Of a stretch of 64,000 bases of DNA, positions 5,113 through 39,239 are shown in pieces (the first letter of the stretch is position 1; every line of letters starts with the position of its first letter). The notes beneath the pieces are model-generated. The model searched no databases. It was not told the origin of the DNA and worked only from the letters and a program-made list of their open reading frames with translations. The stretch comes from Deltaproteobacteria bacterium (GTDB lineage: Bacteria; UBA10199; JADGCS01), in contig JADGCS010000001.1 in the NCBI GenBank assembly GCA_015228875.1, positions 55,886 to 119,885 of the forward strand. Reading direction: 5' to 3'. The position numbers and the translations under genes were made by a program.

Positions 5113-5426
5113 ACAGGAGACCTCATTCGGTTAAGTGTTTAGCTATAGATGAAAGCAATTTTTGTGCCACTGCTTTGTTTTTTTGCTGGAATAACAATAG
5201 GTTACATGTTTGTCGCCCCAAAGACCTGTTATCAAATTGATAAATTATCATATTAGGGGGCAAAATATTGACACCAGAATTGCTGATACAGCTACAAAAT
5301 TAAAGGCTGATGCGACAGTCCAATCCACAGGTACCCTTAAAAAAAAGCAGAAAAACGCCTTTTTTCATACCAAAAAAAACAAAATAATGCCTTTATTCAT
5401 ATTAAAAAAAGCACTATAATAGAGCC

Positions 5427-22299: not shown

Positions 22300-24099
22300 G
22301 TGGGTCAGAAATGTAATAAACATTTTGAGATTGGTCTGAAAAGGGGTATGACCCTTTTGGCAGAACAAGCAGAACAAAGTGATACTATGATCAAACAACG
22401 CATCTTACTCTTTGCCCTTTTGTTTTCGATGACGCTTGCGGGGGTGCTGGGTCATCTGATCTGGAAGGACCTGCTGGGTCGCGAAAATAAAGGGTATGCT
22501 GTTAAAATGATCCGGGGTATGTATGCCCTTGTCAATAATGTCGATCAAGTTGTGCATCGACACATTACCCCGGAACTTTATAAAGACATTCTGCATCAGC
22601 CCCTATCAAAGACGTCTTTTAAGGACTCTCAGGTTTTTAATAATTTAAGAAAAGAACTCAAAAAAATTGACGGTCTTCACAATTTTTATATCGGATTTTA
22701 CACAGACTGTAGCGATGAAGAACCCGGTTCATGTTATTTTGATGACTACCCGGGTGGACAGGTTGTCAGGCGCTACGAGCCAGAGAGCCGCCCATGGTAT
22801 CTTGCCACGCATTCCCACACCGACTGGGTCCTGATCAACTTTATGAGGTTAAAGGAAACCCTCTCGACAGATTACCCTCCAAAGTGGGGATGGGTCTTGA
22901 GCAAAAAAATCGTTTACGATGAACAGGACGACCCTGCAGACAGCCCGCGGGACAAGGGTCTCTGGATCAACCTTTATATCCCGTTTGAGCAAAAAGAAAA
23001 TCTGGAACAGGACTTCAACGAATATCATGGCTCCATCCTTGAACTCGCCCTTTCAAAGGATTACCCCTATTTTTTCTTTTTTGAACTTTTTTTTAAGACG
23101 GTGCTGTTTCCCAAAAAAGCAATCTCTGATCCGGGATCACTGACCATCCTGTGCCATCAAAACAACGAGTACGAACTCTTCAGTTCTCTGTACAGGTCCT
23201 TTGTTTCCTGCCAGGTCAACAAAGAGACGATCCATTTTAATTTTTCAAAAAAATATGATCATTCCTGGCACCGCCTTTTTCTGGTGTTCATTGGACTCGT
23301 GTTTGTTTTTGTGACTTATTTTTTCTTCAGGTACATCCAGGGCCTTCAGATGCAGAGCATCAACAACAGACTGGAAATTGAAAAAGCCAAAACAGCAAAC
23401 TTGATCGGATCAAAGCTCATCCACGATCTCAAAAAGGGCATCATGGCCCCACTCAACCAACTCCCGCAGATTTATGAACACAACTTCGAGTCCGAGGCGC
23501 TGCAACGCGATTTTAAGGAGCGTCTCAAGGCCAACTTTAAACAGCATTTTAAATACTTAAGTTTGCTGAGTAAATACACTCAGCTTCTCACAAACAATTT
23601 AAAGAGAACGCGGGAAAAAAGGTGGGTCAAACTTGATCAGACAATCATGGTGCAATACCTCGACTGGATACTGGGCCGCCATGAAGTGGACATCATCCCG
23701 GTGAACGATGAAGATATTGTTTTAAGAATGGAAATCGAATCGACGGAAAAAATACAGGCAGGGCTTTATCTGTCGGTCAACTTTCCAGACATGTATATCC
23801 CCGAAATATCCTTTTACCGCATCCTTAAAAACATCTGGGAAAACTACAACGCCTACGGAAAAGGGTCGCTTGTTATTGAGTGCGAAAAGCAGAACCACAT
23901 GATGATTGTCAGGGCAACAAACCAGATCAAAGAGCAGACTGAACACACAGCGTCAGCAACCAATCTGGGGCTTACCATCATCAATCAACTTTTGGAGGAC
24001 AATTTTGGCGCAGAAAGGGTTAACGCCTCTGTCAAAAAAGATGATGATCTTTACCTGATCAACATTGTTTTCCCGATCCTTGAGGTTCCTCCCGAGTAA
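22300..24099 (+). CDS. Sensor histidine kinase with periplasmic Cache-like domain
   Basis: TM1, periplasmic region with RPWYLATHS (Cache PWY motif) and TM2. Then LIHDLKKGIMAPL (H-box-like) and a C-terminal ATPase with NLGLTIINQLLE. Confidence 0.6.
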   Translation: MGQKCNKHFEIGLKRGMTLLAEQAEQSDTMIKQRILLFALLFSMTLAGVLGHLIWKDLLGRENKGYAVKMIRGMYALVNNVDQVVHRHITPELYKDILHQPLSKTSFKDSQVFNNLRKELKKIDGLHNFYIGFYTDCSDEEPGSCYFDDYPGGQVVRRYEPESRPWYLATHSHTDWVLINFMRLKETLSTDYPPKWGWVLSKKIVYDEQDDPADSPRDKGLWINLYIPFEQKENLEQDFNEYHGSILELALSKDYPYFFFFELFFKTVLFPKKAISDPGSLTILCHQNNEYELFSSLYRSFVSCQVNKETIHFNFSKKYDHSWHRLFLVFIGLVFVFVTYFFFRYIQGLQMQSINNRLEIEKAKTANLIGSKLIHDLKKGIMAPLNQLPQIYEHNFESEALQRDFKERLKANFKQHFKYLSLLSKYTQLLTNNLKRTREKRWVKLDQTIMVQYLDWILGRHEVDIIPVNDEDIVLRMEIESTEKIQAGLYLSVNFPDMYIPEISFYRILKNIWENYNAYGKGSLVIECEKQNHMMIVRATNQIKEQTEHTASATNLGLTIINQLLEDNFGAERVNASVKKDDDLYLINIVFPILEVPPE

Positions 24100-25320
24100 T
24101 TGCTGATGATCAAACCATTTCTCAACATACTGCTGCTCGATGACGACAACAATTTCGCCGCAACACAGGCCGAAAACATCAGGCATCGGCTGCACGCGTC
24201 TTACGGGCTCGATAAAGAGGTTTTTTTTATTGAAAGCAGCACACGCCTGGATACGATTACCGAGACCATCAGCTCAAGAAACTGGGACGTGGTTTTGTGT
24301 GATCTTGGCTGGGGGGATCTTAATCTCGAAGGTATCCAGATTCTCAACGACATCAAAATGTCTTACCCTTCGGTCTACGCCTTTCTGTACACGGCTCAGG
24401 ACCCCAGTGACGAAACAGTGAGTCAGGCACTGCAGTGGAAGCTCAATTTTATAGATGACATCATCCCGATCGATGAGCAGGATTATACAATGCGCATGGT
24501 TGCCAATATCATCGACGTCTTTGAACGCAAGCGGTCCTTGCTCCTTTCCAAAAAGGATCCCGAGGATACCATTAAACTGCTCGAGGATTTTTTAAAGGCA
24601 GAGTCCGTACACAAAAATAAGATGTGCGAAAAAAACTTTGCAGAAGGGTACCTTTTTAAACACGTCTTTCCGGAGTGCCATTATCTGGCACTCACTGAGC
24701 CAGCTTTTGCTGATGATGTGGCAGGGGTGTGGAGGGGGAAGGTCTTAAACATCATTGATCAGCTAGATCACCAGACGCACGAACACGATGTGTCCATCAG
24801 GGGAACACGCTTACTCCCCAAAAATCAGAGGGTGGCGGTCATCAAGGATTTATCACGCGAGCTGCATGACATTCAAAAGAGGATACAACCGCTCCTCAAC
24901 GAACAGGCGGAATCACTCGCTGCCGAGATTTGTGTCTCCCAGTACGAGCTATCCATCAAGATTAAAGAAAACCCCATCGACCAGCGTTTAAAAAAATACA
25001 ACGACCTCATCCTTAACAAAAAAAGATTCCCGCGTGTCGAGGGCCATGACCTTCTTGCCCTCGATAAAACCTCTTTCATTGAGTTTATCAAGTCCACATA
25101 CGGTGGTTTTCCTCAAATGGCCGAAAGACGCGGGTTGGATCTTAACAATATTTACCGTGTCAACAGAAAATTTAAAAACCTGCCGTTTATTGTATTTAAA
25201 TACGAAACGATCGCCGAGATCATCGGCATTCACAATCCGGACGCCCTAAACGAAAAGATCGCCAGGCTGCTGTCACAGGAAAGACAGATCAGACGCGTTG
25301 TCAACAGACTGCCGCGGTGA
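24100..25320 (+). CDS. Response-regulator receiver protein with uncharacterised 250-aa C-terminal output domain
   Basis: ILLLDDD...VVLCDLGWGD...YTAQDPSD receiver motifs. The C-terminal domain was not recognised. Confidence 0.55.
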   Translation: MLMIKPFLNILLLDDDNNFAATQAENIRHRLHASYGLDKEVFFIESSTRLDTITETISSRNWDVVLCDLGWGDLNLEGIQILNDIKMSYPSVYAFLYTAQDPSDETVSQALQWKLNFIDDIIPIDEQDYTMRMVANIIDVFERKRSLLLSKKDPEDTIKLLEDFLKAESVHKNKMCEKNFAEGYLFKHVFPECHYLALTEPAFADDVAGVWRGKVLNIIDQLDHQTHEHDVSIRGTRLLPKNQRVAVIKDLSRELHDIQKRIQPLLNEQAESLAAEICVSQYELSIKIKENPIDQRLKKYNDLILNKKRFPRVEGHDLLALDKTSFIEFIKSTYGGFPQMAERRGLDLNNIYRVNRKFKNLPFIVFKYETIAEIIGIHNPDALNEKIARLLSQERQIRRVVNRLPR

Positions 25321-25328
25321 GGGCCAAG

Positions 25329-26252
25329 TCACCCATTTCCAATCCTGATTTTTTCCGAGGTTGTGTTTTCACGATTGTCTGATACCTCTGTCGCCTCTTT
25401 GCCCGATTGTTCCTCTATCGGGATTGGCATGTATTTGACATCCTCACGGGTGCTGTCCTCAATGAGGATCTGGCTGTCCTGAGTATCAGGGCCCCTGAAA
25501 AGCCCGTTATTCTGGGGCAGAGGTGTGTCTTCTGCGGTGGTTGCCTTCTGGGTCATGCCCCTGAAGAGCCCAAGGACAAGGCGCAGGATGTAAAGCGGAA
25601 TCACCGAAAACATGACAAGCGCGGTAAAACGGGAAAAGGGGGTGATGCCGTCAAGAATCATGGAGACATAGGCAGAGGTGTTAAACTGTGAAATAAAAAT
25701 ATCGACGGCACAAAAGACGCCAAAACCGATGATAGAGGCAACGGGAAAACGGATAAACATGAGATAATTGCGCGTGAGTTTTTTTATGCCAAATGCCAGG
25801 ACAAAGATGGATGTAAAACCCGATGCAATGGCCGCGGAGAGGGCAACAGCAGAGGTCAGGCGATAATTGATCAATTGATCGAGCAGGGTGTCGAACTGTG
25901 AGGTCTCAGGGTCGAGGCTGTGTTTTTTAAACATCATGAGCAGAAAGAAAGAGAGTAAGACCATGCCTGCGGTGTTGAGAGATGCATAAAAGGCGGATTT
26001 AAAGCCGTAAAATTCGAAGACAAGATACAGACAAATAAATGAGATAAAGAGTGCCATGTGGGAGAGTGGCATCAAGCCTGTGATGACGGTGATGTGTGGC
26101 TCACCGTCGGTTGTGGTGGCCTCAACACTGGGGTAGAACGGGATCTGCTTTGCGGACAGGACGAGTCCAAGGACCGCAATAGTGATCGCGACAGCAAAAA
26201 GCAGATACTGCACCAGGAAAATTTTTGTGGGGATGGGTTTCATATCTTGCAA
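25329..26252 (-). CDS. Integral membrane protein (possibly YhhQ/VUT-like)
   Basis: Six or more hydrophobic helices. The family assignment is tentative. Confidence 0.4.
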   Translation of the reverse strand: MQDMKPIPTKIFLVQYLLFAVAITIAVLGLVLSAKQIPFYPSVEATTTDGEPHITVITGLMPLSHMALFISFICLYLVFEFYGFKSAFYASLNTAGMVLLSFFLLMMFKKHSLDPETSQFDTLLDQLINYRLTSAVALSAAIASGFTSIFVLAFGIKKLTRNYLMFIRFPVASIIGFGVFCAVDIFISQFNTSAYVSMILDGITPFSRFTALVMFSVIPLYILRLVLGLFRGMTQKATTAEDTPLPQNNGLFRGPDTQDSQILIEDSTREDVKYMPIPIEEQSGKEATEVSDNRENTTSEKIRIGNG

Positions 26253-26311
26253 AAGCGTGGGCCATGAGAAATTCTGACGTATCCGCAGGAACGTCAGAAT
26301 TGCTTATGGTC

Positions 26312-26462
26312 TGGTAACTTCTCAATAAGTCATGGCGCATGCATACGTCATTGCGAGCGTACGCGAAGCAATCCCCCGAGTTCACTCATGAGATTGCTTT
26401 GGTCGCTTACGCTCCCTCGCAATGACGGCCGCAACTGCCAGGGGTTATTGAGAGAAGTTACA
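26312..26462. repeat. About 150-bp imperfect palindrome built from two inverted family-C units (cgtcattgcgag...aagcaatc) with perfect 15-bp outer arms
   Basis: gtaacttctcaataa (26314-26328) pairs with ttattgagagaagttac (26446-26462). The inner arms are also reverse-complementary. The centre is the palindrome ctcatgag. Confidence 0.8.
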
Positions 26463-26504
26463 TGGCCCGCGCTTTATTAACTGCATTTATTGGGTTTATG
26501 CAAA

Positions 26505-27257
26505 CTAATAGTACGCCCCGTACCCGGTCCACTGCTGCCAGGGATAGTGTGTGTCTGCTGTGACCTTGATCCAGAAGGGGCGCCCGGATGTTCTCCAGGG
26601 GTCAACGATCAGACCGTCCTTGAAGGGTCGTCCCATGGGGATAATGACAGCCACATTGTGTTCGGTAATTTTTTGCATGTTTGCTTCGCCCCAGACCACA
26701 TAGAAAAACCCGCGATTGACCGTCCTTAAATAAGCAAGCAGGTCCTCCGCCCAGTGTTTGCAGGCACCCCTCTTGCGCACGCCGACATCGATCATCATAT
26801 TGTGGACAATAGGAATAAAGATTGACCTGTAGGATTTTTTTAATCTTCTGATCTCGTTAAATAGGCCCACAGTCAGTACGGTGGCCTCGGTTTGCAGACT
26901 GGCGCGGTCAAAGTCGGTGTTTTTATAATGAGCAGTGTACAGATCGATCAGATCTTCCCTGAGTCTATAAAGGGGGTCGATTTGTTTTTTTTGTTCTACA
27001 AGATCAAAGTACTCTTTTTTGTAAGAGGCCTGTTTTTTAGAAAGCCTGTTTAGATTTTTGCCCTTGGAATTTTTGAATCGCCTGATGAGATCGGGCGAAA
27101 GGGTAGAGATCAGTTTGTTGTACCTTGTCGTTATCTCTGTGTGGTAAGAGTCGAAGTTTTCGGGGGTGATTTGAGTAAGGTAGTCCCGTTTTGCCATGGC
27201 AGAAGGGGAGATAAAGACAAAAATCAATAACAGGATCGAGATCAGGGTCTGTTTCAT
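26505..27257 (-). CDS. Secreted hypothetical protein
   Basis: MKQTLISILLLIFVFISPSAMA signal peptide. Confidence 0.45.
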   Translation of the reverse strand: MKQTLISILLLIFVFISPSAMAKRDYLTQITPENFDSYHTEITTRYNKLISTLSPDLIRRFKNSKGKNLNRLSKKQASYKKEYFDLVEQKKQIDPLYRLREDLIDLYTAHYKNTDFDRASLQTEATVLTVGLFNEIRRLKKSYRSIFIPIVHNMMIDVGVRKRGACKHWAEDLLAYLRTVNRGFFYVVWGEANMQKITEHNVAVIIPMGRPFKDGLIVDPWRTSGRPFWIKVTADTHYPWQQWTGYGAYY

Positions 27258-27543
27258 ATGTCTGATAAAACCTTTCTTGCGTTGCATGGGTTGGCAGGCA
27301 CCCCTGTTTTACCATGAAGATTATGCAAAAATCCATGGCGCAAAGCGGCCCTGACGGATGTAACCATTTTTGGCAGAAATCAAGAGAATACTCACTTTAA
27401 ATTAACTTGAAAATTATGCAAAAAGGAAGACGCGTTCAATGCGTCTTTGTTTTTGCCGAAAAAAAATGACATTAGTTTTATTGCATTAACAGGGATGGCG
27501 TTGTAAATGTTCGTATCCTGCAAATCATGGGGAGGGGGGGACA

Positions 27544-27936
27544 ATGGAGCCTTCTAAGATACTGCTTGTCGATGATGAAAGAGGCTACATCGATAGTCTT
27601 TCGGGGCGCCTTGTGATTCGCGGTTTTGATGTCCGTGGCGTCGAGGATGGTTTTAAAGCCATCGAAGCCCTTAAGGATTTCAGGGCAGATGTCGTCCTGC
27701 TTGATGTGGTCATGCCAGGCAAGGACGGCGTGCAGACGCTCAGGGAGATCAAACAAAATTACCCCAACATTGAAGTCATCATACTCACAGGCAACGCAGA
27801 TGCGCAGACAGCGATTAACGTAATGGAGCTCGGGGCCTTCGACTACCTTCTTAAACCGGTTGGTGTGGATCATCTTGTCTGCAGGCTCAACGATGCCTGC
27901 AAGAAAAAAATGCTGCTCTTAAAAAAAGTGTATTAG
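27544..27936 (+). CDS. Single-domain response regulator (CheY-like receiver)
   Basis: ILLVDDE...VVLLDVVMPGKDG...IILTGNAD...LLKP. Confidence 0.9.
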   Translation: MEPSKILLVDDERGYIDSLSGRLVIRGFDVRGVEDGFKAIEALKDFRADVVLLDVVMPGKDGVQTLREIKQNYPNIEVIILTGNADAQTAINVMELGAFDYLLKPVGVDHLVCRLNDACKKKMLLLKKVY

Positions 27937-28152
27937 CCGTTTGTGTCGAGCGGCAATGCGCTTGAGAACATAACAAGTGTCTGTCGGTAAATGCCCTGTT
28001 TCTTCGGAAGTTTGAAAATTTTGCCGCTTGCAAAATATTTCAAACCCTGAAAAATCATGTCTTTATGTTTTGTCACGGGACATGATTTTTCAGGACTCCT
28101 GCGAAACAGGGCGTTTACCGACAGACACAAACCAAGCCAGCGAGGTACAAAA

Positions 28153-29433
28153 ATGAAAAAAATGAGAAAAGTCTACGACATGATGCTGGAGGCATCAGTG
28201 GCTCATGCAAAATGGGATTACGAGGTCTCTTCCAATATCTTAAAAAGAAAGAGTCGTCTCCTTATCCTTTTTATTCTCCTGCTTCCGATTATACTGGTGT
28301 CCCTTGCGCAGGCAACAGGCAATCTGCCGGTATCTCTCGGCGGAAAGGAAACTTACACACCAGAGTTCTACACAACATCGGTCTTTCTCCTTTCGATTGT
28401 CATCGGTTTTTGTGCCGGACTCATTACGGGCTGTATCGGTGCGGGTGGCGGGTTTATTATTACGCCCGCCCTGATGAGCATTGGGATCAAGGGCATCCTG
28501 GCCGTGGGGACAGATCTTTTTCATATCTTTGCCAAGGCCATTATGGGAACTGTCATTCATAAAAAACTGGGAAATGTCTGCGTGGGACTTGCTGTGGCCT
28601 TTCTGGTTGGTTCCGGTATTGGTGTGGTTGGCGGGGGTGTGATTAACCGTACCTTGTACGAGATCAACCCCATCTTAAGCGATACCTTTATCAGCCTGTT
28701 TTATGTGTTTCTGCTCGGGTTTCTGGGAGTCTATGCCCTGACGGACTTTTTAAGGCTCAGAAAAAAGGGGGAAGATGTCGATGTGCACCGGAGCGGCAGC
28801 TCGCTCAAAGAAAAAGACGGAAGTTTAAAAAAAGCAACCCTCTCTTCAAGGCTTCAGGCCTCCAATATACCGCCCGTTATTAACTTTGATCAGGACCTTG
28901 TCCCTGGTGGTAAAAAAATTCCGGCTCTGTTTGTGGCGATCTGCGGTTCAATAGTGGGTTTTGTGGCCGCGATCATGGGTGTGGGCGGCGGTTTTTTGAC
29001 CTTCCCCATGTTTGTGTACATCCTAGGCGTGTCTTCTTACACAACTGTCGGGACCGACATCACACAGATCATTTTTACGGCCGGTTTCGCCTCGATCACC
29101 CAGTATGCCATTTATGGTTTTATTTTTTATACCTTGGCGATGGGGATGCTGATTGGTTCGCTGGCGGGTATCCAGATCGGGGCGTTGACCACAAAGGTTG
29201 TCCGTGGAATTTATATCCGCGGGTTTTATGCCATGGCCATCCTTGCCGGTTTTTTTAACAGGCTTTTTATCCTGCCCAAAAAACTGGATGAGTTGGGGGT
29301 GATTGCGATCCCCAAGACAATACTGGCAGTCCTCACCCAGTTTGGCACGATCAGTTTTTATATTACCATTGCCATTTTTGCGCTGTGGGTGACGAGCAAG
29401 TTTTTTCTTAATATCAAACAGCTCAGGGCCTAA
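28153..29433 (+). CDS. TSUP (TauE/SafE, DUF81) family membrane transporter, tandem two-domain form, paralog 1
   Basis: Two GxGGG signatures: GCIGAGGGFIITPALMSIG and MGVGGGFLTFPMFVYILG. Multiple transmembrane helices. Confidence 0.7.
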   Translation: MKKMRKVYDMMLEASVAHAKWDYEVSSNILKRKSRLLILFILLLPIILVSLAQATGNLPVSLGGKETYTPEFYTTSVFLLSIVIGFCAGLITGCIGAGGGFIITPALMSIGIKGILAVGTDLFHIFAKAIMGTVIHKKLGNVCVGLAVAFLVGSGIGVVGGGVINRTLYEINPILSDTFISLFYVFLLGFLGVYALTDFLRLRKKGEDVDVHRSGSSLKEKDGSLKKATLSSRLQASNIPPVINFDQDLVPGGKKIPALFVAICGSIVGFVAAIMGVGGGFLTFPMFVYILGVSSYTTVGTDITQIIFTAGFASITQYAIYGFIFYTLAMGMLIGSLAGIQIGALTTKVVRGIYIRGFYAMAILAGFFNRLFILPKKLDELGVIAIPKTILAVLTQFGTISFYITIAIFALWVTSKFFLNIKQLRA

Positions 29434-29554
29434 AGCTGGTTCTTTCTATGCCCCGAAGGAAATCCCCTTGGGGGAGGTGCGGTTTAACGTCAATATATGA
29501 TAGTCAGCCCGCGTGGTATTTTAGGACCGATGCGGGGTATGGAGGATAAGCAAA

Positions 29555-30256
29555 ATGATTATTGTAAACAAAAAAACTTTTTATACCGGTTTCTTTATGG
29601 CTGTTGTCTTTGTTTGTGTCCTTGTGGGCATGTTTATGCCTTTGTTCGAGGGAAAAAACGCCTTTGAGTCCGCTGATGACCTGTTTAATTCACTTTCCAA
29701 GGGCTCAACGTATTATATACCCGGTGTTGAGAAGGAGGTCCGGGCTATGGGGCACCAGCCCATCACTTCCGAACAAAAAACCACCGACACAGCAGACACA
29801 CTCAAGGTGTTGACCACAAACAATATACAGGTTGTTCCATCGGGCGATAAGATCAGTGTGACGGGAAACCTCGACGATATCATCAGCGTCGCACTTGGTG
29901 ATGCAGACTTAATGTTTAAAAATGACGGGGACGCGATTGTAAAAAAGTACGGTATTCCCGAGGCAAAAAGGGTGGTCTACATTTGGTGGCATGTATTGAC
30001 CGGTCTCGAAAAATCCCTCGAAAAGGCAGAACGCTTTAAAGAGGCGGCCATGACAAAAAAGGCCAAGGCACGGGGGATAGAGGTTGCCTACAATTTTTTC
30101 GCAATTAATTCACAGGATATCTCGCAGAAGTGGGGGATTCTTTTATTCTCACTGATATTCTATGTGTGCTACACACTGTGGTGGGGTTATGCCATTTTTT
30201 ATCTCGTAGATGGTGTGGGACTCAAACTCAAACCGGGCATGAAAAAAGAGGCGTAA
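29555..30256 (+). CDS. Hypothetical membrane protein
   Basis: N- and C-terminal transmembrane helices. The gene sits between TSUP-1 and the ppsA-like gene with 8-bp spacing. Confidence 0.45.
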   Translation: MIIVNKKTFYTGFFMAVVFVCVLVGMFMPLFEGKNAFESADDLFNSLSKGSTYYIPGVEKEVRAMGHQPITSEQKTTDTADTLKVLTTNNIQVVPSGDKISVTGNLDDIISVALGDADLMFKNDGDAIVKKYGIPEAKRVVYIWWHVLTGLEKSLEKAERFKEAAMTKKAKARGIEVAYNFFAINSQDISQKWGILLFSLIFYVCYTLWWGYAIFYLVDGVGLKLKPGMKKEA

Positions 30257-30263
30257 CGCCGTT

Positions 30264-32864
30264 ATGGGGCCCAAAAAACCGTTTTTTTCCTTCGTAAAAA
30301 AAAAACCTCAAAAAAATACAGAAGAGCTTCGTCACGAGTTTAAAAAGAGATATCATCATTTTAAACTCCTGCTTCTTGCAAACAGCAATGCCCTCAATGC
30401 CATGACGGAGATGGAAGAGGCCCATCAGGGGGAACGCCCGTTAAGACTCAGTTTCATCAGGTCAAGATGCACGACCATTGCCACTAATGTTTATCTGATG
30501 ATCAAAAATCTCAATGCCCTGTCTGGTGACAAATACACCAGGCTGTATGAAAAATTTAAGGAGATTCAATCCAGCATCTCGCCCTTTCTGGTTCGTCATG
30601 AGCCTCTTAAAGACCAGCCCTTGATTCTCTCCATGGAGAAACTCAATAAAACTCTTGCGGATCACTCGGGAAACAAAATGGCAAATCTCGGTGAGATCAG
30701 AAGCAGACTTGGTATTGCTGTTCCCGAAGGTTTTGTTGTGACCTCAAGGGCCTATCGTGCTTTCATGGATGACACAGGTCTCAAGTCCGCCATATACGAG
30801 TCTTTGCAAATGGCGGAGGCAGAATCCTTTGAGGACTACGACAATCTGTGCCGTGAAATCAGGCGAGTTGTTCTAAAGACTGATCTCCCTGATGCGCTAA
30901 AAAACGCCATCACCGAAGGGTATTCTGCCGTCGAAAAGAAACTGGTGGCAGGCGTGCCTGTTGCCATGAGAAGCTCTTCTTCACTGCCTGAACTGGCAGG
31001 ACGCTCCTTTGCGGGGCAGTACCACACTGTACTTGGTGTGACACAAGAGCATCTCTTTCAGGCATACAAGGAGGTCGTTGCGAGCAAATATTCACTGCCG
31101 GCGATGATGTACAGGATCAACCGCGGTATTCGTGAAGACGATGTCACAATGTGCGTCGGCTGCATGGCCATGGTGAGCGCAGAAGCGGGCGGGGTGGCCT
31201 ATTCAAAAAATCCTGTAGATGCACAGGATGACAATGTGATGATTCATTCGGTCTTTGGACACCCCAAGTGTATCATGGACGGGACTGACACAGCGGATTT
31301 GTTGGTTGTGACGAGAGAAACACCGCTGAGAATTGTCAAGAGGGACATCCCTTTAAAAACAAGGGAAATCAAATTTAACCCCGCGGGTCTTTTGTCCGAA
31401 GTGGGGATCAATGAGGAGCGTGGGCTTAAGGCCTCGCTATCCGATGAAAAGGCGCTTGAACTCGCTGCGCTTGTCCTTAAGATTGAGGATTATTACAAGA
31501 CAGCGCAGGATGTAGAGTGGGTATTGACAAGAGAGGGAAAAATTATTGTCGTGCAGTGTCGCCCCATTGTGCAAATCAGTCTTAAGGACCCCGTCAATAT
31601 TGAGGAGGATGATCATACAAGGCCGCACGGGATTCTTATGTCGGGTGGCAGCACAGCAAGTCCGGGCATTGCATCTGGTCCGGTCTTTGTGGCGAGAAAA
31701 GAAAAAGATATCCTTAATTTCCCCCAAGGGGCGGTTCTGGTTGCGGAGCAGTCCCTGCCTTACTGGGCCATTGTATTAAACAGGGCCTCCGCGGTCATTG
31801 CCGAGTCGGGCAATATCGCGGGGCATCTGGCCACTGTCGCCAGGGAATTTAATGTCCCGGCCCTTTTTGGATTAAAGGACGCCACAAAAATCTTGAAGAA
31901 CGGGGAGGCGATCACTGTTGACGCGGACCGCAGGCAGGTCTGTGAAGGCAAGATTGAAAGGGAGTCTTTAAACAGACTTAAAGAATCACAAGAGGTTTCT
32001 CAGCGGAGATATTATAAAAGCACCCCCGTTTATGCAGCCCTGTGTGGCGCGATACAGCACATCACCCCACTGCATCTGCTTGACCCCGATGCCATCGATT
32101 TTGTCCCCGAAAAATGCACGACCTTTCATGACATCACGCGATTTTGTCACGAAAAGGCATCAAACGGGATGTTTGAAACAGGGACTGACAAGGAGTTTAC
32201 AGAGTATCAGAGCAGGCAGCTTGTCTGCGACATCCCGATGCAGTTCTGGGTCATTGATCTTGACGACGGCTTTCGCGAAAGACCCGCAGACAACAACTTT
32301 GTCAAATTTGAAAATATCGTGTCGATTCCCATGCTGGCGATCTGGGCCGGGATGACGGCGATTCCATGGAAAGGCTCCCCGCCTGTTAATTTAAAGGGTT
32401 TCATGTCTGTTATTTTGGGATCAATGGGCGACACGTCACTCGATCCCTCTATGCCCTCAAGGTATGCGATAAAAAATTATTTTATGGTCTCCAAAAATTA
32501 CTGCAGCCTTCAGTCAAGATTTGGTTATCATTTTTCTTCTACCGAGGCTATTATCGGCGAAAATGCCTTTGAGAACTACATTCATTTTCGATTTAAGGGG
32601 GGTGCTGCCGACCGTCGTCAAAGGGTCGACCGTGCGAGACTGATCGCCAGCGTACTCGAAGAGATGGGCTTTCATACCGTGCTTAGAGGAGATTCGGTGG
32701 ATGCCAGAATGAAGGGGCACGATCCCATCTTTACCGAGTCACGATTAAGGATCATCGGCTATTTAACCATCCACACAAGACAACTCGACATGGTGATGGA
32801 GGGAGAAGAATCAATCCAGATCTACAAGGACAAGATTATTGCGGATGTTTTAAAACTGGTCTGA
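30264..32864 (+). CDS. PEP-utilising-enzyme family protein: PpsA-like ATP-grasp domain plus swivel phospho-histidine domain, with an unrecognised C-terminal domain
   Basis: KMANLGEIRSRLGIAVPEGFVVTSRAY (PPDK_N-like), central SGNIAGHLATVAREFNVPALFG (mobile His domain). No PEP-binding TIM-barrel motifs were seen. Confidence 0.65.
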   Translation: MGPKKPFFSFVKKKPQKNTEELRHEFKKRYHHFKLLLLANSNALNAMTEMEEAHQGERPLRLSFIRSRCTTIATNVYLMIKNLNALSGDKYTRLYEKFKEIQSSISPFLVRHEPLKDQPLILSMEKLNKTLADHSGNKMANLGEIRSRLGIAVPEGFVVTSRAYRAFMDDTGLKSAIYESLQMAEAESFEDYDNLCREIRRVVLKTDLPDALKNAITEGYSAVEKKLVAGVPVAMRSSSSLPELAGRSFAGQYHTVLGVTQEHLFQAYKEVVASKYSLPAMMYRINRGIREDDVTMCVGCMAMVSAEAGGVAYSKNPVDAQDDNVMIHSVFGHPKCIMDGTDTADLLVVTRETPLRIVKRDIPLKTREIKFNPAGLLSEVGINEERGLKASLSDEKALELAALVLKIEDYYKTAQDVEWVLTREGKIIVVQCRPIVQISLKDPVNIEEDDHTRPHGILMSGGSTASPGIASGPVFVARKEKDILNFPQGAVLVAEQSLPYWAIVLNRASAVIAESGNIAGHLATVAREFNVPALFGLKDATKILKNGEAITVDADRRQVCEGKIERESLNRLKESQEVSQRRYYKSTPVYAALCGAIQHITPLHLLDPDAIDFVPEKCTTFHDITRFCHEKASNGMFETGTDKEFTEYQSRQLVCDIPMQFWVIDLDDGFRERPADNNFVKFENIVSIPMLAIWAGMTAIPWKGSPPVNLKGFMSVILGSMGDTSLDPSMPSRYAIKNYFMVSKNYCSLQSRFGYHFSSTEAIIGENAFENYIHFRFKGGAADRRQRVDRARLIASVLEEMGFHTVLRGDSVDARMKGHDPIFTESRLRIIGYLTIHTRQLDMVMEGEESIQIYKDKIIADVLKLV

Positions 32865-33438
32865 GACCACTCGTAATCCCCAAAAAATCAAGAAGTTTGT
32901 TTTTAAATCTGATTGTGAAGGCTGGCTTTGGTCCCTCGGGGTCTGTGGGAGGGGTGTGCAGTATTTTGTTGTCACGCGCATCGCTTAATCTTGCGATCAA
33001 ACAGTCCATGTTGATGGGTTTAAGGAGATAAGCAAAGGCCCCTGATTCGAGAATGCGAATAGACAAATCCATATCTGCATGAGCGGTGAGGACAATAATT
33101 TCACACAAGGGGTGCCTTTTTTTGATTTGCTGAATGCAGTAGATGTCCTCAGCGTTGGGGGCCTGTGTGTCAAGCAGGATTACATCGGCCTTAAAAGTGG
33201 CCAGCGCTGCCAAAAGATCCTCCCGGCATGAAACACCCACTGTGTCAAGGTTTCTTGCCTTAAAGATTTTGATCATCCTTTCCCTGTAGTAATCGACATC
33301 GTTAACAAACAACACCCTGGTGCGTTCTGCATAAATCGCGTCACGCGTGCGTGGGTGATCCAAAGACACACCCTTTCGATCAGACACCCCCTCTCTAATC
33401 AAGGCGGGGTAATAACTGATGACACTGTGAAAGCTCAT
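32836..33438 (-). CDS. Response-regulator receiver-domain protein
   Basis: VLFVNDVD...VILLDTQAP...IIVLTAHAD...YLLKP. Confidence 0.7.
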   Translation of the reverse strand: MSFHSVISYYPALIREGVSDRKGVSLDHPRTRDAIYAERTRVLFVNDVDYYRERMIKIFKARNLDTVGVSCREDLLAALATFKADVILLDTQAPNAEDIYCIQQIKKRHPLCEIIVLTAHADMDLSIRILESGAFAYLLKPINMDCLIARLSDARDNKILHTPPTDPEGPKPAFTIRFKNKLLDFLGITSGLRPVLKHPQ

Positions 33439-33609
33439 AAAAATTCATTATGCAATGAGCATGCCAAAATCAGTGGGGTCCGCATTTGTTCTATCTTGTT
33501 GAAAAAAGAGACTTATTTATTAACAGCTGTTTTTGAATGCGGTGACAAACAGGACGGTAGCGTCAGATTTTTTTACAGGTTGTAAAGAACATGTGAGGGA
33601 CTTGATGTA

Positions 33610-33700: not shown

Positions 33701-35131
33701 CTACCCGACCGTTGAGCGCACCTTGAGATTGTATTTTTCGATCTTGGCCTGAAGCGTTGGTCTTGTGAGCCCCAGAAGTTTGGCGGCATTGGTCCTGTTG
33801 CCATCAGTCAATTTGAGGGCTTCAGCGATAATGATTTTGCCGAACTGGTCCATTAAAGAATCAAACTTGCCATCTTGGGTCGTCGCATCGAACATGTGAC
33901 GAACAAGCTGTTGCACACTGCATTCGGGGTCGCTCATAAATTCATTGGGTGTCTTTGTGTTTTTTTTGCACAGGATAACCTGCCGCAGGTCCTTGACCTC
34001 AACGGGGGCGCCTTGAGAGAAGATCAGAACCCTTTGAATGGTGTTTTGCAGTTCCCTGACATTGCCTGGCCAGTTGTATTCTAAGAGCATGGCAACGGCA
34101 TCTTCAGTCAGGCCTGGATTGGGTTTGCCGTTTTGTGCCGAGAAAAAACTCATGAAATAATCGGTGAGCAGAGGGATATCTCCCTGACGGTCGCGTAAAG
34201 GCGGGACATTAAGGGTGACAACTTTAAGTCTGTAATAGAGATCCTCCCTGAAACTTCCCTCCGCAAGAGCCGCTTCAAGATTGCGATTGGTCATGGCCAC
34301 AATTCTCACGTCGACAGGAATGGTCTCTCTGCCGCCGAGTCTTTCGATGCATTTTTCCTGCAGGAGTCTTAAAATCTTTGCCTGAATATTTGCCGGCATA
34401 TCGCCGATTTCATCGAGGAGTACGGTTCCCTTGTTTGCCTGTTCAATCTTCCCCAGTTTTCTGCTGACGGCGCCAGTAAAGGCGCCTTTTTCGTATCCAA
34501 AAAGCTCGCTTTCGAGCAGGGTGTCGGGGATAGCCACGCAGTTGATGACGACAAAAGGTTTGTTGGATCGTTCGCTGTGCTGATAAATGGCTCTGGCCAC
34601 GAGTTCCTTGCCTGTGCCAGTCTCGCCGCGCACAAGCACTGTGGCATCGTTGGGTGCAACATGCCCGATTTCTTTGTAGAGCTTTTGCATAACCTTGCTT
34701 TGTCCTACAATGACATCGGACTTTGTCCCATCGGCAATGATATTCATGTCTATTCTTTTTCTCATGAACTGGCCCGACTTAATGGCGTCTTTGATGAGTT
34801 CAAGGATCTCCGGGATATCAAATGGTTTAAAGATGTAATCAAATGCCCCCATCTTGGTCGCTTCGATGGCCATATCTGTGGTTCCGTACGCAGTCATGAT
34901 GATCAATGGGAGTTTGGGATCGATATCGTGAATGATCAAAAAAGCGTCATACCCACTCATGCCAGGCATTTTGATATCCATCAAGACAAGGTCGGGAGAG
35001 CGGGACTCAACCAGATTGATGCCCTCCTGCCCGGTCTGTGCAATGATGACGTTATAGCCCTCAGCGATCAGAATTTTTTTAAAACTCTTGAGAAGCTGCA
35101 GATCATCATCGACTATGAGAATGGTTTCCAT
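33701..35131 (-). CDS. Sigma-54-dependent transcriptional activator (NtrC family response regulator)
   Basis: Receiver domain, AAA+ domain with GETGTGKELVARAIY and GAFTGA, and a C-terminal Fis-type HTH. Confidence 0.93.
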   Translation of the reverse strand: METILIVDDDLQLLKSFKKILIAEGYNVIIAQTGQEGINLVESRSPDLVLMDIKMPGMSGYDAFLIIHDIDPKLPLIIMTAYGTTDMAIEATKMGAFDYIFKPFDIPEILELIKDAIKSGQFMRKRIDMNIIADGTKSDVIVGQSKVMQKLYKEIGHVAPNDATVLVRGETGTGKELVARAIYQHSERSNKPFVVINCVAIPDTLLESELFGYEKGAFTGAVSRKLGKIEQANKGTVLLDEIGDMPANIQAKILRLLQEKCIERLGGRETIPVDVRIVAMTNRNLEAALAEGSFREDLYYRLKVVTLNVPPLRDRQGDIPLLTDYFMSFFSAQNGKPNPGLTEDAVAMLLEYNWPGNVRELQNTIQRVLIFSQGAPVEVKDLRQVILCKKNTKTPNEFMSDPECSVQQLVRHMFDATTQDGKFDSLMDQFGKIIIAEALKLTDGNRTNAAKLLGLTRPTLQAKIEKYNLKVRSTVG

Positions 35132-36597
35132 TATTTTTCCTCACATGGCAAAGAGATCACAAAGGTTGTTCCTTTGTTGTTTTCGGAGATGACGTGTATC
35201 TTTCCCCCGTGTTCATTGATGATCCTGACGGCAATACTCAGACCAAGACCAGTGCCGTCATCCTTTGTGCTAAAAAACGGCTGAAATATTTTTTCCTGAA
35301 CAGCCCTTGGTATGCCTGGTCCGTTATCTGCGATGCTGATGACAACGGCCCGGCCTATCGATGCATTTGTTTCAAGGTGTTCGGTAATCTCAATCCTGCC
35401 TTCTTTGACCATGGCCTCGCAGGCGTTGGTGATGATGTTGACAAGAACTTCTATCAGTTGATCTGGATCGGCCCAAATATCGGGGGATTTGTCTTTTCTG
35501 TTGATGATGACTTCTACGTTATACAATTTTAAGCGATGGTGCAGGAGTTGCAAGGTGGAGTCGACAATAGATGACGGGCTGATCTTTTTTTGCTTGAGTT
35601 TGGGTGGTCTGGCAAACTCGACAAAGTTATTGATCACGCTGTCGATGTGTCTGACCTCTTCTGAAATAACGTCAAGGTCCTCCTTCTGATCCCCTGTAAG
35701 AGCTTTGTGTCTCTGCATGGAAAAAAGTCTCATTTTAACGGATGTCAGGGGGTTGCGAACGCTGTGAGCCACACCGGCAGCCAGTTTTCCAACCTCAATC
35801 CATTTCTCTGATTTTTGCAGTATCTCGTGACTTAATTCGAGTTCGATCTTGGTCTTGTCGGCGTTTTCTATCAGGGTGTGTACACTTCTGCTTAATGTCT
35901 TGACCTCGTCGGACGGGTGCGATTCGGCGGGCGCGGCGTGGGCGTCGAATGTCAGCTGGCGTATGGGTTCGAGGATAAAATTAAGCAGGATATAACCAAG
36001 CAGTGCAGTAAAGAAGATCATCAGGCTCATCGTGACAAGGACAAAGGTATTGACAATATTTGCCTTGTGGTAATTTTTTTTGATGGCCTCGTTGATAATG
36101 CGTTGATGCAGTTCCTTGTAAGCCTCACACGATTTTTGAATTTCAAAGAATTTGCCGCGGACATCCTGATGAAGCCTGGCGCCGGCTTCTTTTTCGCCCC
36201 TTTGATACATTGTGATCACCTTGCTCTTTGAGTCAGAATATTTCTGGTATTCCACCCTGATGGTATCAAGCAGTTTTTTTTCTGGTTCGCCCTCGCTGAA
36301 TTGATTGGCCTCGGCCAGTTTTGTATCAAAGAGGTTCTGATATTTTTTGAGTTGGTCAAGCCATGCCGGGTTTCCATCAAGAAAAAAATAACTAACGTAG
36401 CCTTTTTGCATGGCGAGCGCGTTATCAAATTCGTGAGCCGAATTAAGGGCCTTGGTACTCCTGTCTATGATATTTTTTAGGGAGCCATCGACCTGATGAA
36501 TGTACCAGATGGTCACTACAGCCCCTGTGATGGCCATGATCATGATGAAAAGGAGAATGATCAGGATCCTTGTACGCAAACTCAGTTTGAAAAACAT
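35131..36597 (-). CDS. Sensor histidine kinase (partner of the NtrC-like regulator)
   Basis: N-terminal TM/HAMP region, H-box AAGVAHSVRNPLTSV, and ATPase NGPGIP...GTGLGLSIA. Confidence 0.9.
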   Translation of the reverse strand: MFFKLSLRTRILIILLFIMIMAITGAVVTIWYIHQVDGSLKNIIDRSTKALNSAHEFDNALAMQKGYVSYFFLDGNPAWLDQLKKYQNLFDTKLAEANQFSEGEPEKKLLDTIRVEYQKYSDSKSKVITMYQRGEKEAGARLHQDVRGKFFEIQKSCEAYKELHQRIINEAIKKNYHKANIVNTFVLVTMSLMIFFTALLGYILLNFILEPIRQLTFDAHAAPAESHPSDEVKTLSRSVHTLIENADKTKIELELSHEILQKSEKWIEVGKLAAGVAHSVRNPLTSVKMRLFSMQRHKALTGDQKEDLDVISEEVRHIDSVINNFVEFARPPKLKQKKISPSSIVDSTLQLLHHRLKLYNVEVIINRKDKSPDIWADPDQLIEVLVNIITNACEAMVKEGRIEITEHLETNASIGRAVVISIADNGPGIPRAVQEKIFQPFFSTKDDGTGLGLSIAVRIINEHGGKIHVISENNKGTTFVISLPCEEK

Positions 36598-36761: not shown

Positions 36762-36777
36762 TGGCACACTTGTTGCT
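36762..36777 (+). promoter_or_regulatory. Sigma-54 (-24/-12) promoter TGGCAC-N5-TTGCT
   Basis: ctGGCACacttgTTGCTata matches the consensus with correct GG/GC spacing. It lies 70-90 bp upstream of the small-TM/TSUP-2 operon and is divergent from the NtrC/HK pair. Confidence 0.7.
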
Positions 36778-37087: not shown

Positions 37088-38299
37088 ATGGATCTTTATT
37101 TACCTATAGCCGGTGTTGAGATCGCCGCATGGCAGCTTGTGTTGCTTGGTCTCACCGTTGGTGTGATCGGTGGTTTTTTTGGAATTGGCGGGGCCTTTAT
37201 GGTCACGCCAGCCCTTAACGTATTTGGTTTTCCGATGGCCTATGCCATCGGCACAGACATGGCGCACATCGCGGGTAAATCGATTGTGGCCACGGCCAAA
37301 CATCGCAAACTCGGTAATGTAGATTTAAGGCTGGGCATCCTGATGGTTATTTTTACGGCAATAGGCATCGAGGGGGGCGCAACGCTTATCATGTGGCTTG
37401 AAAAGATCGGCAGAGTAGGCCCCATTGTGCGTATTGTTTACATGGTTCTTCTTTTTGGACTTGGTTCCTACATGATGTACGAGTATTTCAAACTGACTCG
37501 TGGGGCGATGAGCAGCGGGGCTCATGATGCCAAGACATCAGGTCTGGCCCTCAGGATGCAGAGCCTTAAACTCAAACCCATGATCACTCTTAAAACGTCC
37601 GGTGTTCAAATTTCTCTATGGGTTATTGCGGTTGTTGCCACCTTCACGGGATTTCTTGCGGGTTTTCTGGGTGTCGGCGGCGGTTTTATCAGGATGCCCT
37701 CCCTCATCTACGTTATCGGCTGCCCAACTACGGTAGCCGTTGGCACAGATCTATTTGAGGTCATGATCTCCGGCGCATACGGCGCCTTCTCTTATGCCTA
37801 CAAGGGCCGCGTGGAGATTGTTGCAGCGATTGTCATGCTGCTTGGTGCGGCACTGGGAGCGCAGTTTGGGACTGTGGCCACAAAATACGTCAAGGGACTC
37901 ACCATACGGCTCTATTTTGCTGTGACCATGCTGCTTGCCGGTGTGTCTGTTATTTTTAAACACATTGCCTCCCACTACAAAAATATGTACGAGCCGTCGC
38001 TTATTGCATGGGCAAAGAGCACAAGTGGTTTGTCCGACAAAGTAGAGGTCAAGGACTGGATCATGATGCACAAACCTGCTGTGCAGAGTTGGGTCACTCA
38101 ACAATCCGATATCTTGCAAAGTGCCTACGTCCTGGATAAGTCCTGGAACAACTATTCTGGCTATCTGATGCTGGGTGCGGCCTGTGCCTTGAGCGCCCTG
38201 ATTATCATTAAAATGATCAGGGGTGTCATTTACGAGCGACGTCTTAATGGCTCGAAGATGCCTCTGGGGCGACAGGTAAACGTCGCAACAGCTGAATAA
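37088..38299 (+). CDS. TSUP (TauE/SafE) family membrane transporter, tandem two-domain form, paralog 2
   Basis: GGFFGIGGAFMVTPALNVFG and LGVGGGFIRMPSLIYVIG. A strong GGAGGA RBS precedes the start. Confidence 0.7.
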   Translation: MDLYLPIAGVEIAAWQLVLLGLTVGVIGGFFGIGGAFMVTPALNVFGFPMAYAIGTDMAHIAGKSIVATAKHRKLGNVDLRLGILMVIFTAIGIEGGATLIMWLEKIGRVGPIVRIVYMVLLFGLGSYMMYEYFKLTRGAMSSGAHDAKTSGLALRMQSLKLKPMITLKTSGVQISLWVIAVVATFTGFLAGFLGVGGGFIRMPSLIYVIGCPTTVAVGTDLFEVMISGAYGAFSYAYKGRVEIVAAIVMLLGAALGAQFGTVATKYVKGLTIRLYFAVTMLLAGVSVIFKHIASHYKNMYEPSLIAWAKSTSGLSDKVEVKDWIMMHKPAVQSWVTQQSDILQSAYVLDKSWNNYSGYLMLGAACALSALIIIKMIRGVIYERRLNGSKMPLGRQVNVATAE

Positions 38300-38429
38300 G
38301 GGTCTTGTCCTGCCCATACCTGGTATCCATTTGTCTTGATTGCATCCCTCACATGTTATAGAGGTCTGCCTGATTTTTTTACTCAAATATAAACCTCGTT
38401 GTGAGTCACGAGGTATTAAGGAGCAGATT

Positions 38430-39239
38430 ATGTCTATAGTCACCATCTCAAGGGGGTCGCATTGTTACGGTACAGAGATAGCCGAAAAGGTTGCCCGCAA
38501 ACTGGGATTTGAGTGTATCTCCAGAGAGATCCTGCTCGATGCCTCAAGGGATTATCATGTCCCAGAGGTCAAGCTCATCAAGGCCATTCACGATTCACCG
38601 TCTTTTCTTGACCGATTAACCCTTGGTAAAAAGAGATACATCACCTACATCCAGACAGAACTGCTTAAACACTTAAACAGGGACAATATTGTTTATCACG
38701 GCCTGGCCGGGCATTTTTTTGTGAGGGACATCAGTCATGTGCTCAAGGTGAGGGTCATCGCCGATCACGAAGACCGGATCAAGCTCGTCATGGGGCGCGA
38801 TCATGTCTCCGAAAAAGAGGCTGTTAAACTGCTCGAAAGGGACGATGCAGAACGCAAAAAATGGGGGCTTGCCCTGTACAACATCGACACAACAGATCCT
38901 TCATTGTATGATCTCGTGTTGCGTATCCGTAAATTCTCTGTCGATGACGCCGTCGACATAATCTGTCGATCTGTTCAATTAAAACAATTTCAGACCACTG
39001 CCGATTCAAAACAAAAACTCGCGGATATCCTGCTTGCCTCACGTGTCAGGTCTATCCTGATTGATATTGCAGCTATCAGAGATATATCAGCGGCAGAGGG
39101 TGTCGTCTATGTCTCCCTTGAGGGACACGCGCTTCAACTGGATGAATTGCATACCCTGATCAGAAAAAAAATCTTTGATGAGGTTGGCTTTTCAGAGGTC
39201 AAATTTGAATCGATCATCACCGGCGGTCTCGCAGATTAA
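38430..39239 (+). CDS. Cytidylate-kinase-like family P-loop protein
   Basis: IVTISRGSHCYGTEIAEKVARKLGF is a (d)CMP-kinase-like N-terminus. An AAGGAG RBS is present. Confidence 0.55.
   Translation: MSIVTISRGSHCYGTEIAEKVARKLGFECISREILLDASRDYHVPEVKLIKAIHDSPSFLDRLTLGKKRYITYIQTELLKHLNRDNIVYHGLAGHFFVRDISHVLKVRVIADHEDRIKLVMGRDHVSEKEAVKLLERDDAERKKWGLALYNIDTTDPSLYDLVLRIRKFSVDDAVDIICRSVQLKQFQTTADSKQKLADILLASRVRSILIDIAAIRDISAAEGVVYVSLEGHALQLDELHTLIRKKIFDEVGFSEVKFESIITGGLAD

Follow-up and report, generated by a model that had tools for sequence, protein, structure and literature searches.

We analysed a stretch of 64,000 nucleotides (nt) from a Deltaproteobacteria bacterium (assembly GCA_015228875.1, contig JADGCS010000001.1, positions 55,886 to 119,885 of the forward strand), which is called the window below. 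It contains a gene for a protein of 866 amino acids (aa) that we refer to as PPSL, for PpsA-like protein. The gene lies in a plus-strand array that begins with RR130, a single-domain CheY-like response regulator, and continues with a TauE/TSUP-family permease, the 233-aa protein X233 and PPSL (Table 1). The stop codon of X233 and the start codon of PPSL are 7 nt apart, and an AGAGG-type ribosome-binding site for PPSL is found within the final codons of the X233 gene.

Domains of PPSL and its C-terminal region

Pfam places PPDK_N (PF01326, E 2.5e-78) on residues 136–451 of PPSL and the mobile domain of phosphoenolpyruvate (PEP) utilizers (PF00391, E 6.8e-17) on residues 486–556. Residues 1–135 and 570–866 gave no Pfam match, even with the threshold loosened to E ≤ 10. 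The PpsA equivalog models of NCBIfam, NF005057 (319.9 bits against a cut-off of 598) and TIGR01418 (316.1 bits against 739.75), both take in residues 117–573 only, and the alignment with the solved PpsA chains 9dae, 8a8e and 2ols is confined to residues 117–574. In the chain alignment GNIAGHLATVAREF stands opposite GGMTSHAAIVSREL, with His521 opposite the histidine of the TSH motif of 9dae, which identifies His521 as the swivel histidine. K138, R236 and the SFAG, QDxEW and QxR motifs are invariant among PPSL orthologues; judged by its residues, the catalytic set is complete in both the ATP-grasp and the swivel domain. With an ATP-grasp and a mobile phospho-His domain on one polypeptide, as the swivel-His dikinase superfamily requires, PPSL is a member of that superfamily. 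Residues 1–116 are a helical bundle, a feature without counterpart in PpsA. An earlier interpretation of the locus that used the DNA letters alone (the sequence-only reading) had described an N-terminal extension of about 130 aa, an intact PPDK_N-like domain and an intact mobile-domain histidine (GHLATVAREF). Relative to PpsA the extension comes to about 116–135 aa, and the Pfam matches, the invariant residues and the motif at residues 520–529 agree with the rest of that description.

The sequence-only reading had also recognised no TIM-barrel motif in the last 290 aa or so, and had named a confident barrel match there as the result that would turn the protein into an ordinary PpsA. About 293 aa are indeed left unmatched, and such a barrel, looked for by profile and structure comparison, was absent. 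The PEP/pyruvate TIM barrel PF02896 was undetected in PPSL at E ≤ 10. An AlphaFold2 model of residues 560–866, with 67 sequences as input (mean pLDDT 76.6, core above 90), displays helices around nine mostly antiparallel strands and a terminal beta-alpha-beta-beta-alpha unit; an alternating (beta/alpha)8 pattern is absent from it. The secondary structure of the domain is the same in a model of full-length PPSL (pLDDT 81.7). The structure matches to the domain model included neither the barrel of PpsA, PPDK or enzyme I nor the rifampin-binding domain of rifampicin phosphotransferase (RPH). As far as profiles and predicted structures can tell, we are confident that the PPSL C-terminus is no PEP/pyruvate TIM barrel. 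It is an alpha+beta domain of about 295 aa without a solved or curated relative, and its fold is of unassigned type.

Foldseek matched the C-domain model to RecJ/Cdc45 and to I-CreI at E values of 0.035 or higher, which is too weak and heterogeneous for homology. CheW came up in a profile search of PDB sequences at E 0.6–0.7; we judged this match to be noise, since CheW is all-beta and the PPSL region is beta-alpha-beta-beta-alpha. Residues 772–837 form an ACT-like beta-alpha-beta-beta-alpha unit, which is meant as a topological remark only.

More than 1100 proteins match PPSL across 97–100% of its length at 45–50% identity. Mean column conservation is 0.745 for the C-terminal 296 residues versus 0.696 for the ATP-grasp domain. 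Full-length homologues with a conserved C-terminus argue that the PPSL architecture is not due to chance. Residue conservation was followed in 101 sequences, the window PPSL and 100 representatives that are 28–45% identical to it. D623, H756, G780, R790 and D842 of the C-domain are present in all 101, and H622, R626, H629, R752, R839 and Q840 in 95–97, versus 91 for the swivel H521 and 89 for K138 of the ATP-grasp domain. The invariant His/Asp/Arg residues and the Gly-Gly loop of the C-domain are thus conserved more strongly than the ATP-grasp residues, and the window PPSL has every one of the residues just named. Such a highly conserved domain with a signature of its own is not a decaying one. 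We defined the family by eleven residues C-terminal to the ATP-grasp and swivel domains (H622, D623, R626, H629, R752, H756, G779, G780, R790, R839 and D842). This signature is complete in the window PPSL, and 82 of the 84 PPSL genes of related loci have the identical pattern.

A profile hidden Markov model of the C-domain was run exhaustively against 1.84 billion cluster representatives (50% identity clusters) and retrieved 1407 proteins, 699 of them at E < 1e-30. In essentially all full-length matches the domain occupies about residues 560–870 of a protein of about 860 aa, and this constant position points to a single architecture. Longer members (907–1078 aa) carry no additional Pfam domain. 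In a species-level scan with one genome per species we found at least 593 PPSL loci, mostly in Desulfobacterota (Syntrophobacteraceae, Desulfobacteraceae, Desulfomonile, Desulfatiglandaceae and Desulfacinum infernum DSM 9756) and a few in metagenome-assembled genomes (MAGs) of Acidobacteriota and Myxococcota. The homologues are annotated by their sources as 'pyruvate, water dikinase', 'Phosphoenolpyruvate synthase' or 'PEP/pyruvate-binding domain-containing protein', and the first of these names is very probably wrong for PPSL. A literature search on the family, on a link between TauE and dikinases and on sulfate-reducer paralogues turned up no account of the PPSL family. Its novelty lies in the N-terminal bundle, the third domain and the conserved context; the catalytic chassis was already known.

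Twelve of the 100 representatives have lost Lys138, His521 or, in the majority of cases, both, and in all 12 the C-domain signature is complete or largely so; the loss of both residues thus concerns about 10% of the family. That degenerate members keep the C-domain indicates that it has a role without a strict need for phosphotransfer in cis. All 84 PPSL genes in orthologous loci are catalytically complete, tandem paralogues included. Two loci (L088, 8001–15444, and L089, 4843–12286) contain TauE, X233, a PPSL without the Lys and the His, a dCache histidine kinase, a regulator and a complete PPSL, an array that looks like a pseudoenzyme/enzyme pair within one cluster. At L087 (2603–10598), a degenerate PPSL and an upstream response regulator are found beside dsrA, dsrB and dsrD, and neither 8-kb flank contains an active paralogue. 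We did not take the dsrAB adjacency as a functional clue; it is anecdotal, seen in L087 alone among about 90 loci. A type III CRISPR-Cas locus adjoins the degenerate PPSL region of L087.

Gene context in other genomes and in the window

The six-frame open reading frames (ORFs) of 85 related loci were searched with the window proteins, and counts of upstream genes were restricted to the 59 loci whose upstream sequence extends over 4.5 kb or more. In 53 of them TauE precedes PPSL on the same strand, and in 52 X233 lies upstream (immediately before PPSL in 31); 51 loci have both genes upstream on the same strand. Single-domain receivers occur in 48 loci, and X233 or a receiver directly adjoins PPSL in 51. 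The window has the same context, with TauE, X233 and a CheY-like regulator on one strand. The link to a transporter operon, noticed in the sequence-only reading, is kept in 51 of the 59 related loci. RR130 shares 48–53% identity with regulators that stand immediately in front of PPSL or TauE elsewhere. Among 98 cluster regulators there is conservation of the acid pocket (DD), the phospho-acceptor D54, T82 and K104.

The cluster of Desulfacinum infernum, for example, comprises a dCache histidine kinase, three regulators, TauE, X233, PPSL, a GAF histidine kinase and Usp. That of Maridesulfovibrio ferrireducens begins in its 5' part with a 4HB_MCP histidine kinase, NtrC, a weak receiver-like gene, a dCache histidine kinase and three regulators, and its 3' part consists of TauE, X233, PPSL, a regulator and a SulP-STAS permease; the pair of 4HB_MCP kinase and NtrC is common to this cluster and the window. 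In a variant arrangement, Usp and a receiver-like protein are placed between X233 and a regulator-PPSL pair. CheY-like regulators, dCache kinases and Usp proteins are the usual companions of the TauE-X233-PPSL array. DASS permeases occur in 15 PPSL loci and SulP in 5, and Usp and CBS proteins recur in the clusters. Some clusters are permease-free and consist of regulator and PPSL alone, and the regulator-PPSL pairs of L024, L030, L078 and L087 have no kinase in their flanks. No conserved metabolic enzyme was found in PPSL clusters among the loci surveyed. Directly upstream of TauE-X233-PPSL, locus L004 (2587–5895) has Usp, a DVU0150-family protein (PF28216), TauE, DUF4881 and a 251-aa protein. 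In D. vulgaris the operon DVU0150-DVU0146 has been predicted to be a target of sigma-54 and carries the annotation 'transmembrane transport' (PMC4641369).

In the window, the gene for a second receiver-domain protein, RR200, is convergent with PPSL, and the 3' ends of the two overlap by 29 nt. Cytidylate_kin2-like ORFs are found near PPSL in L018, L043, L055, L062 and L067; together with the window's second TauE and its Cytidylate_kin2 neighbour they suggest that TSUP permeases are repeatedly paired with nucleotide-using proteins. The sigma-54 -24/-12 consensus TGGCAY-N5-TTGCW has 3 exact matches in the window versus 0.21 expected by chance. Two of them flank the NtrC/kinase operon (33701–36597, minus strand), which suggests a local sigma-54 regulon. 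A promoter and terminator scan of 27000–33600 gave counts no higher than the shuffled expectation, and we therefore make no claim on operon boundaries.

Table 1. Features of the window (nt positions in the window; residue numbers refer to PPSL)
Feature	Position	Strand	Remarks
Sigma-54-type promoter match	5154-5169	-	upstream of ORF 3751-5112 (-)
RR130, single-domain CheY-like response regulator	27544-27936	+	PF00072, E 9.4e-28
TauE/TSUP-family permease	28057-29433	+	PF01925, E 7.8e-35
X233, 233 aa	29555-30256	+	N- and C-terminal transmembrane (TM) helix, soluble loop of about 155 aa between (predicted)
PPSL, PpsA-like protein, 866 aa	30264-32864	+	uninterrupted ORF, ATG at 30264, stop 32862-32864
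N-terminal extension, residues 1-116	30264-30611	+	three long helices, 19-54, 62-87 and 93-108
ATP-grasp nucleotide-binding domain, residues 117-455	30612-31628	+	G136, K138, R236-S-S, S248-F-A-G, Q415-D-x-E-W, Q431-x-R433
Phospho-His swivel (mobile) domain, residues 456-565	31629-31958	+	motif G516-NIAG-H521-LATVA-R527-E528
Predicted catalytic His521	31824-31826	+	GHLATVAREF at residues 520-529
Linker helices and C-terminal domain, residues 566-866	31959-32861	+	own family-wide residue signature
Family-wide signature of the C-domain			H622, D623, R626, H629, E630, R752, G754, H756, G779, G780, R790, D810, R839, Q840, D842
RR200, second receiver-domain protein	32836-33438	-	PF00072, E 1.1e-16
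Sigma-54-type promoter match	33451-33466	-	just upstream of RR200 ORF
NtrC-type sigma-54 activator	33701-35131	-	Pfam
Histidine kinase with 4HB_MCP sensor	35131-36597	-	Pfam
Sigma-54-type promoter match	36762-36777	+	about 310 nt upstream of second TauE/Cytidylate_kin2 pair
Second TauE permease	37088-38299	+	Pfam
Cytidylate_kin2-family protein (PF13189)	38340-39239	+	Pfam

The first TauE may in truth start at an internal Met, its annotated start being too far upstream. Its N-terminus before the first TM helix is unusually long, and at residues about 235–290 a long Ser/Lys-rich loop, HRSGSSLKEKDGSLKKATLSSRLQAS, lies between the two halves. X233 matched no Pfam or NCBIfam family, and its predicted topology follows from the positive charges beside both helices. 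Nearly all of its 228 homologues are entered by their sources as 'hypothetical protein'. One copy that is identical to the window's X233 was found under the name 'MAG: hypothetical protein HQM16_00440 [Deltaproteobacteria bacterium]'; the search with PPSL returned nothing above 50% identity. A 131-aa ORF at 27478–27873 (minus strand) without Pfam match was rejected as a shadow of the RR130 gene. Just upstream of the PPSL cluster, at 22300–27287, there are four consecutive ORFs without Pfam match, of 599 aa (+), 406 aa (+), 307 aa (-) and 260 aa (-). An ORF of 836 aa at 51283–53793 (minus strand) has no Pfam family at E ≤ 0.001.

A possible role of PPSL in anion sensing and uptake

Our tentative reading, to which we would give somewhat less than an even chance, is that PPSL is an ATP-driven phospho-His relay enzyme and the cytoplasmic partner of an anion sensing and uptake module, with a regulatory output. 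ATP would be bound by the ATP-grasp domain, as its complete set of catalytic residues suggests, and His521 would be phosphorylated as in PpsA, PPDK and RPH, in keeping with the conservation of motif and fold. To judge from the domain order and the retained linker helices, the swivel domain would dock on the C-domain, at the place of the pyruvate/PEP barrel in PpsA. The invariant residues there (His622, Asp623, Arg626, His629, Arg752, His756, the Gly779-Gly780 loop at a helix N-terminus, Arg790 and Asp842) would make up a putative anion- or phosphoryl-binding pocket that holds the acceptor or an effector ligand. PPSL would act with the co-transcribed TauE, its 2-TM partner X233 and the CheY-like response regulators, and a phosphoryl group or an activity state would be exchanged with a partner protein, either a CheY-like regulator or the transporter; alternatively, the regulator may switch PPSL. 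The effect would be to tune anion uptake to the ATP/AMP status of the cell, and the anion could be sulfate or a related oxyanion. In a more specific version, which we regard as improbable, PPSL would be an ATP-grasp histidine kinase unrelated to HisKA/HATPase that exchanges phosphoryl groups with the adjacent CheY-like receivers. Its C-domain would sense the intracellular anion, and adenylate status would thereby be coupled to TSUP, DASS or SulP permeases in sulfate-reducing and syntrophic Desulfobacterota.

We favour a regulatory output over a dedicated catabolic phosphorylation step because the conserved cluster consists of signalling and transport genes only, because the C-domain accompanies three unrelated permease families as well as bare regulator-PPSL pairs, and because degenerate members persist and still stand beside TauE-X233 or a regulator. 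VadK offers a precedent that PPDK-derived proteins can turn into regulatory histidine kinases (PMC13400623). The TSUP, DASS and SulP families have been examined for candidate transporters of sulfate in sulfate reducers (PMC5840216), and Desulfobacteraceae clusters with a DASS or SulP permease, cache-domain kinases, regulators and CBS proteins were proposed to control sulfate uptake (PMC11887813).

Several points speak against a regulatory relay. With its many invariant charged residues the C-domain resembles a catalytic pocket rather than a surface for docking a protein, and the histidine kinases of the same clusters could serve all regulators. A link between PPSL and sulfate uptake would follow from an association at the family level only. 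The literature searched contains no biochemistry on any member of the family. All characterised three-domain relatives phosphorylate small molecules (PMC4844700, PMC12167813), and a small-molecule substrate is what the third domain binds in each of them (PpsA, PPDK, RPH and PigC/HapC). These last two points favour an alternative that we consider possible but rather unlikely, namely that PPSL is a metabolic small-molecule dikinase. A solute imported by TauE/X233, DASS or SulP would occupy the C-domain pocket and be phosphorylated by His521~P, with conversion of ATP to AMP and Pi, and would thus be trapped or activated; the two-component genes would control expression only. The logic would be that of RPH, phenylphosphate synthase and HpeHI, and PPSL has the PpsA order, with its new domain where the acceptor site of PpsA and PPDK lies. 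An invariant His/Asp/Arg cluster with a Gly-Gly loop before a helix is typical of an anion or phosphoryl-transfer site, and the 7-nt gap and the conserved linkage couple PPSL tightly to transporter genes. However, the clusters contain no conserved downstream enzyme for a phospho-product, and one and the same C-domain signature occurs with three unrelated permease families or with no permease. The degenerate members could be substrate-binding subunits that are served in trans, comparable to the split HpeHI, and the L088 pair would fit; the degenerate PPSL of L087, with no active paralogue in its 8-kb flanks, does not.

PPSL might also be a reversible, PPDK-like sensor or conserver of energy that equilibrates His521~P with the pools of ATP and of AMP plus Pi (or pyrophosphate, PPi), either regenerating ATP from a phosphorylated donor in the C-domain or reporting adenylate status. 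We think this quite unlikely. It would suit a family concentrated in energy-limited anaerobes (Syntrophobacteraceae, Desulfobacteraceae, Desulfomonile), in which sulfate activation perturbs those pools directly (Sat yields PPi and APS reductase yields AMP), and the recurring Usp and CBS proteins often bind adenine nucleotides (for CBS, PMC11887813). PPDK-family chemistry is reversible, and in bacteria and protozoa PPDK works in the ATP-forming direction (PMC5371819). Yet the N-terminal region of PPSL scores nearer to PpsA than to PPDK models, and the use of water as second acceptor makes the PpsA reaction effectively irreversible. The degenerate member beside dsrAB-dsrD, which would suit the proposal, is 1 of about 90 loci. 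As to the name in the databases, a plain ppsA with a fast-evolving C-terminus would account for the source annotations and for the best NCBIfam matches, which are the PpsA equivalogs at residues 117–573. But the scores reach about half of the curated cut-offs and the matches end at residue 573, PF02896 is undetected, and the C-domain is highly conserved, carries its own signature and is modelled as an antiparallel alpha+beta fold instead of a (beta/alpha)8 barrel. Plain PpsA is thereby effectively excluded by computation.

PPSL is called a PEP synthase in hundreds of genomes, and metabolic reconstructions of sulfate reducers and syntrophs that follow this annotation would put a gluconeogenic step in the wrong place. 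The family is a large and coherent one that has escaped study, and its C-domain, without solved or curated relative, is well suited to structural work and to a search for ligands. The gene is almost always linked to an anion permease, X233 and CheY-like regulators, and occasionally to DASS or SulP, which points to an unrecognised control of anion uptake. The anion may be sulfate, which would matter for organisms that drive much of anaerobic carbon and sulfur cycling.

Relation to known systems

In PPSL as in PpsA (EC 2.7.9.2) the ATP-grasp is followed by the swivel His domain and then by the third domain, and the MRSS, SFAGQ, QDxEW, QxRP and G-x-x-x-G-H-x-A-x-x-x-R-E motifs of the two can be aligned. 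The two proteins differ in the third domain, which is the PEP/pyruvate TIM barrel in PpsA and the alpha+beta domain in PPSL. PPSL differs further in its additional helical bundle of about 116 aa at the N-terminus and in its conserved neighbours, a TSUP permease and two-component genes. Enzyme I (PtsI/PtsP) takes its phosphate from PEP in a TIM barrel, whereas PPSL has an ATP-grasp domain for ATP; no homology of PPSL to the helical subdomain of enzyme I could be demonstrated.

The sequence-only reading had compared PPSL to RPH as a relay with a different domain order. The architecture of a phospho-relay to a putative non-pyruvate acceptor stands, but the order is simply that of PpsA and PPDK, and the C-domain is unrelated to the rifampicin-binding domain, to which it has no structural similarity. 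In RPH and PigC the acceptor domain is located between the ATP-grasp and His domains, whereas the His domain of PPSL (486–556) precedes the third domain. The score against the RPH model NF041857 is 197 bits, with a cut-off of 999. PPSL as an RPH was therefore rejected on order, substrate domain and score alike. The relatives of RPH include PigC/HapC/RedH and the split HpeHI and phenylphosphate synthase enzymes.

In composition, the PPSL loci resemble the Desulfobacteraceae sulfate-transporter clusters (PMC11887813). Both have DASS or SulP, dCache kinases, regulators and CBS proteins, and the PPSL loci also have Usp. The regulators are single-domain receivers in PPSL clusters and WalR-type in the Desulfobacteraceae clusters, and the window has a TSUP permease with X233 in place of DASS or SulP. 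The text of PMC11887813 and the supplements searched mention no dikinase.

VadK (Rv1127c) of Mycobacterium tuberculosis is a PPDK-derived histidine kinase with a proposed regulatory function via His autophosphorylation (PMC13400623). The model PRK05878 covers only residues 451–571 of PPSL. VadK has a length of about 490 aa. VadK and PPSL are both proteins of the PEP-utilising family without PEP/pyruvate barrel, but VadK has neither a replacement third domain nor an N-terminal bundle, and PPSL has both. VadK also belongs to a different lineage and to a methylcitrate-cycle context, in contrast to the transporter and two-component context of PPSL. With its conserved third domain of about 295 aa, PPSL is not a truncated PPDK kinase of the VadK type. 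If its acceptor is a response regulator or a transporter, PPSL would extend the VadK finding and suggest that dikinase scaffolds have repeatedly been recruited for signalling.

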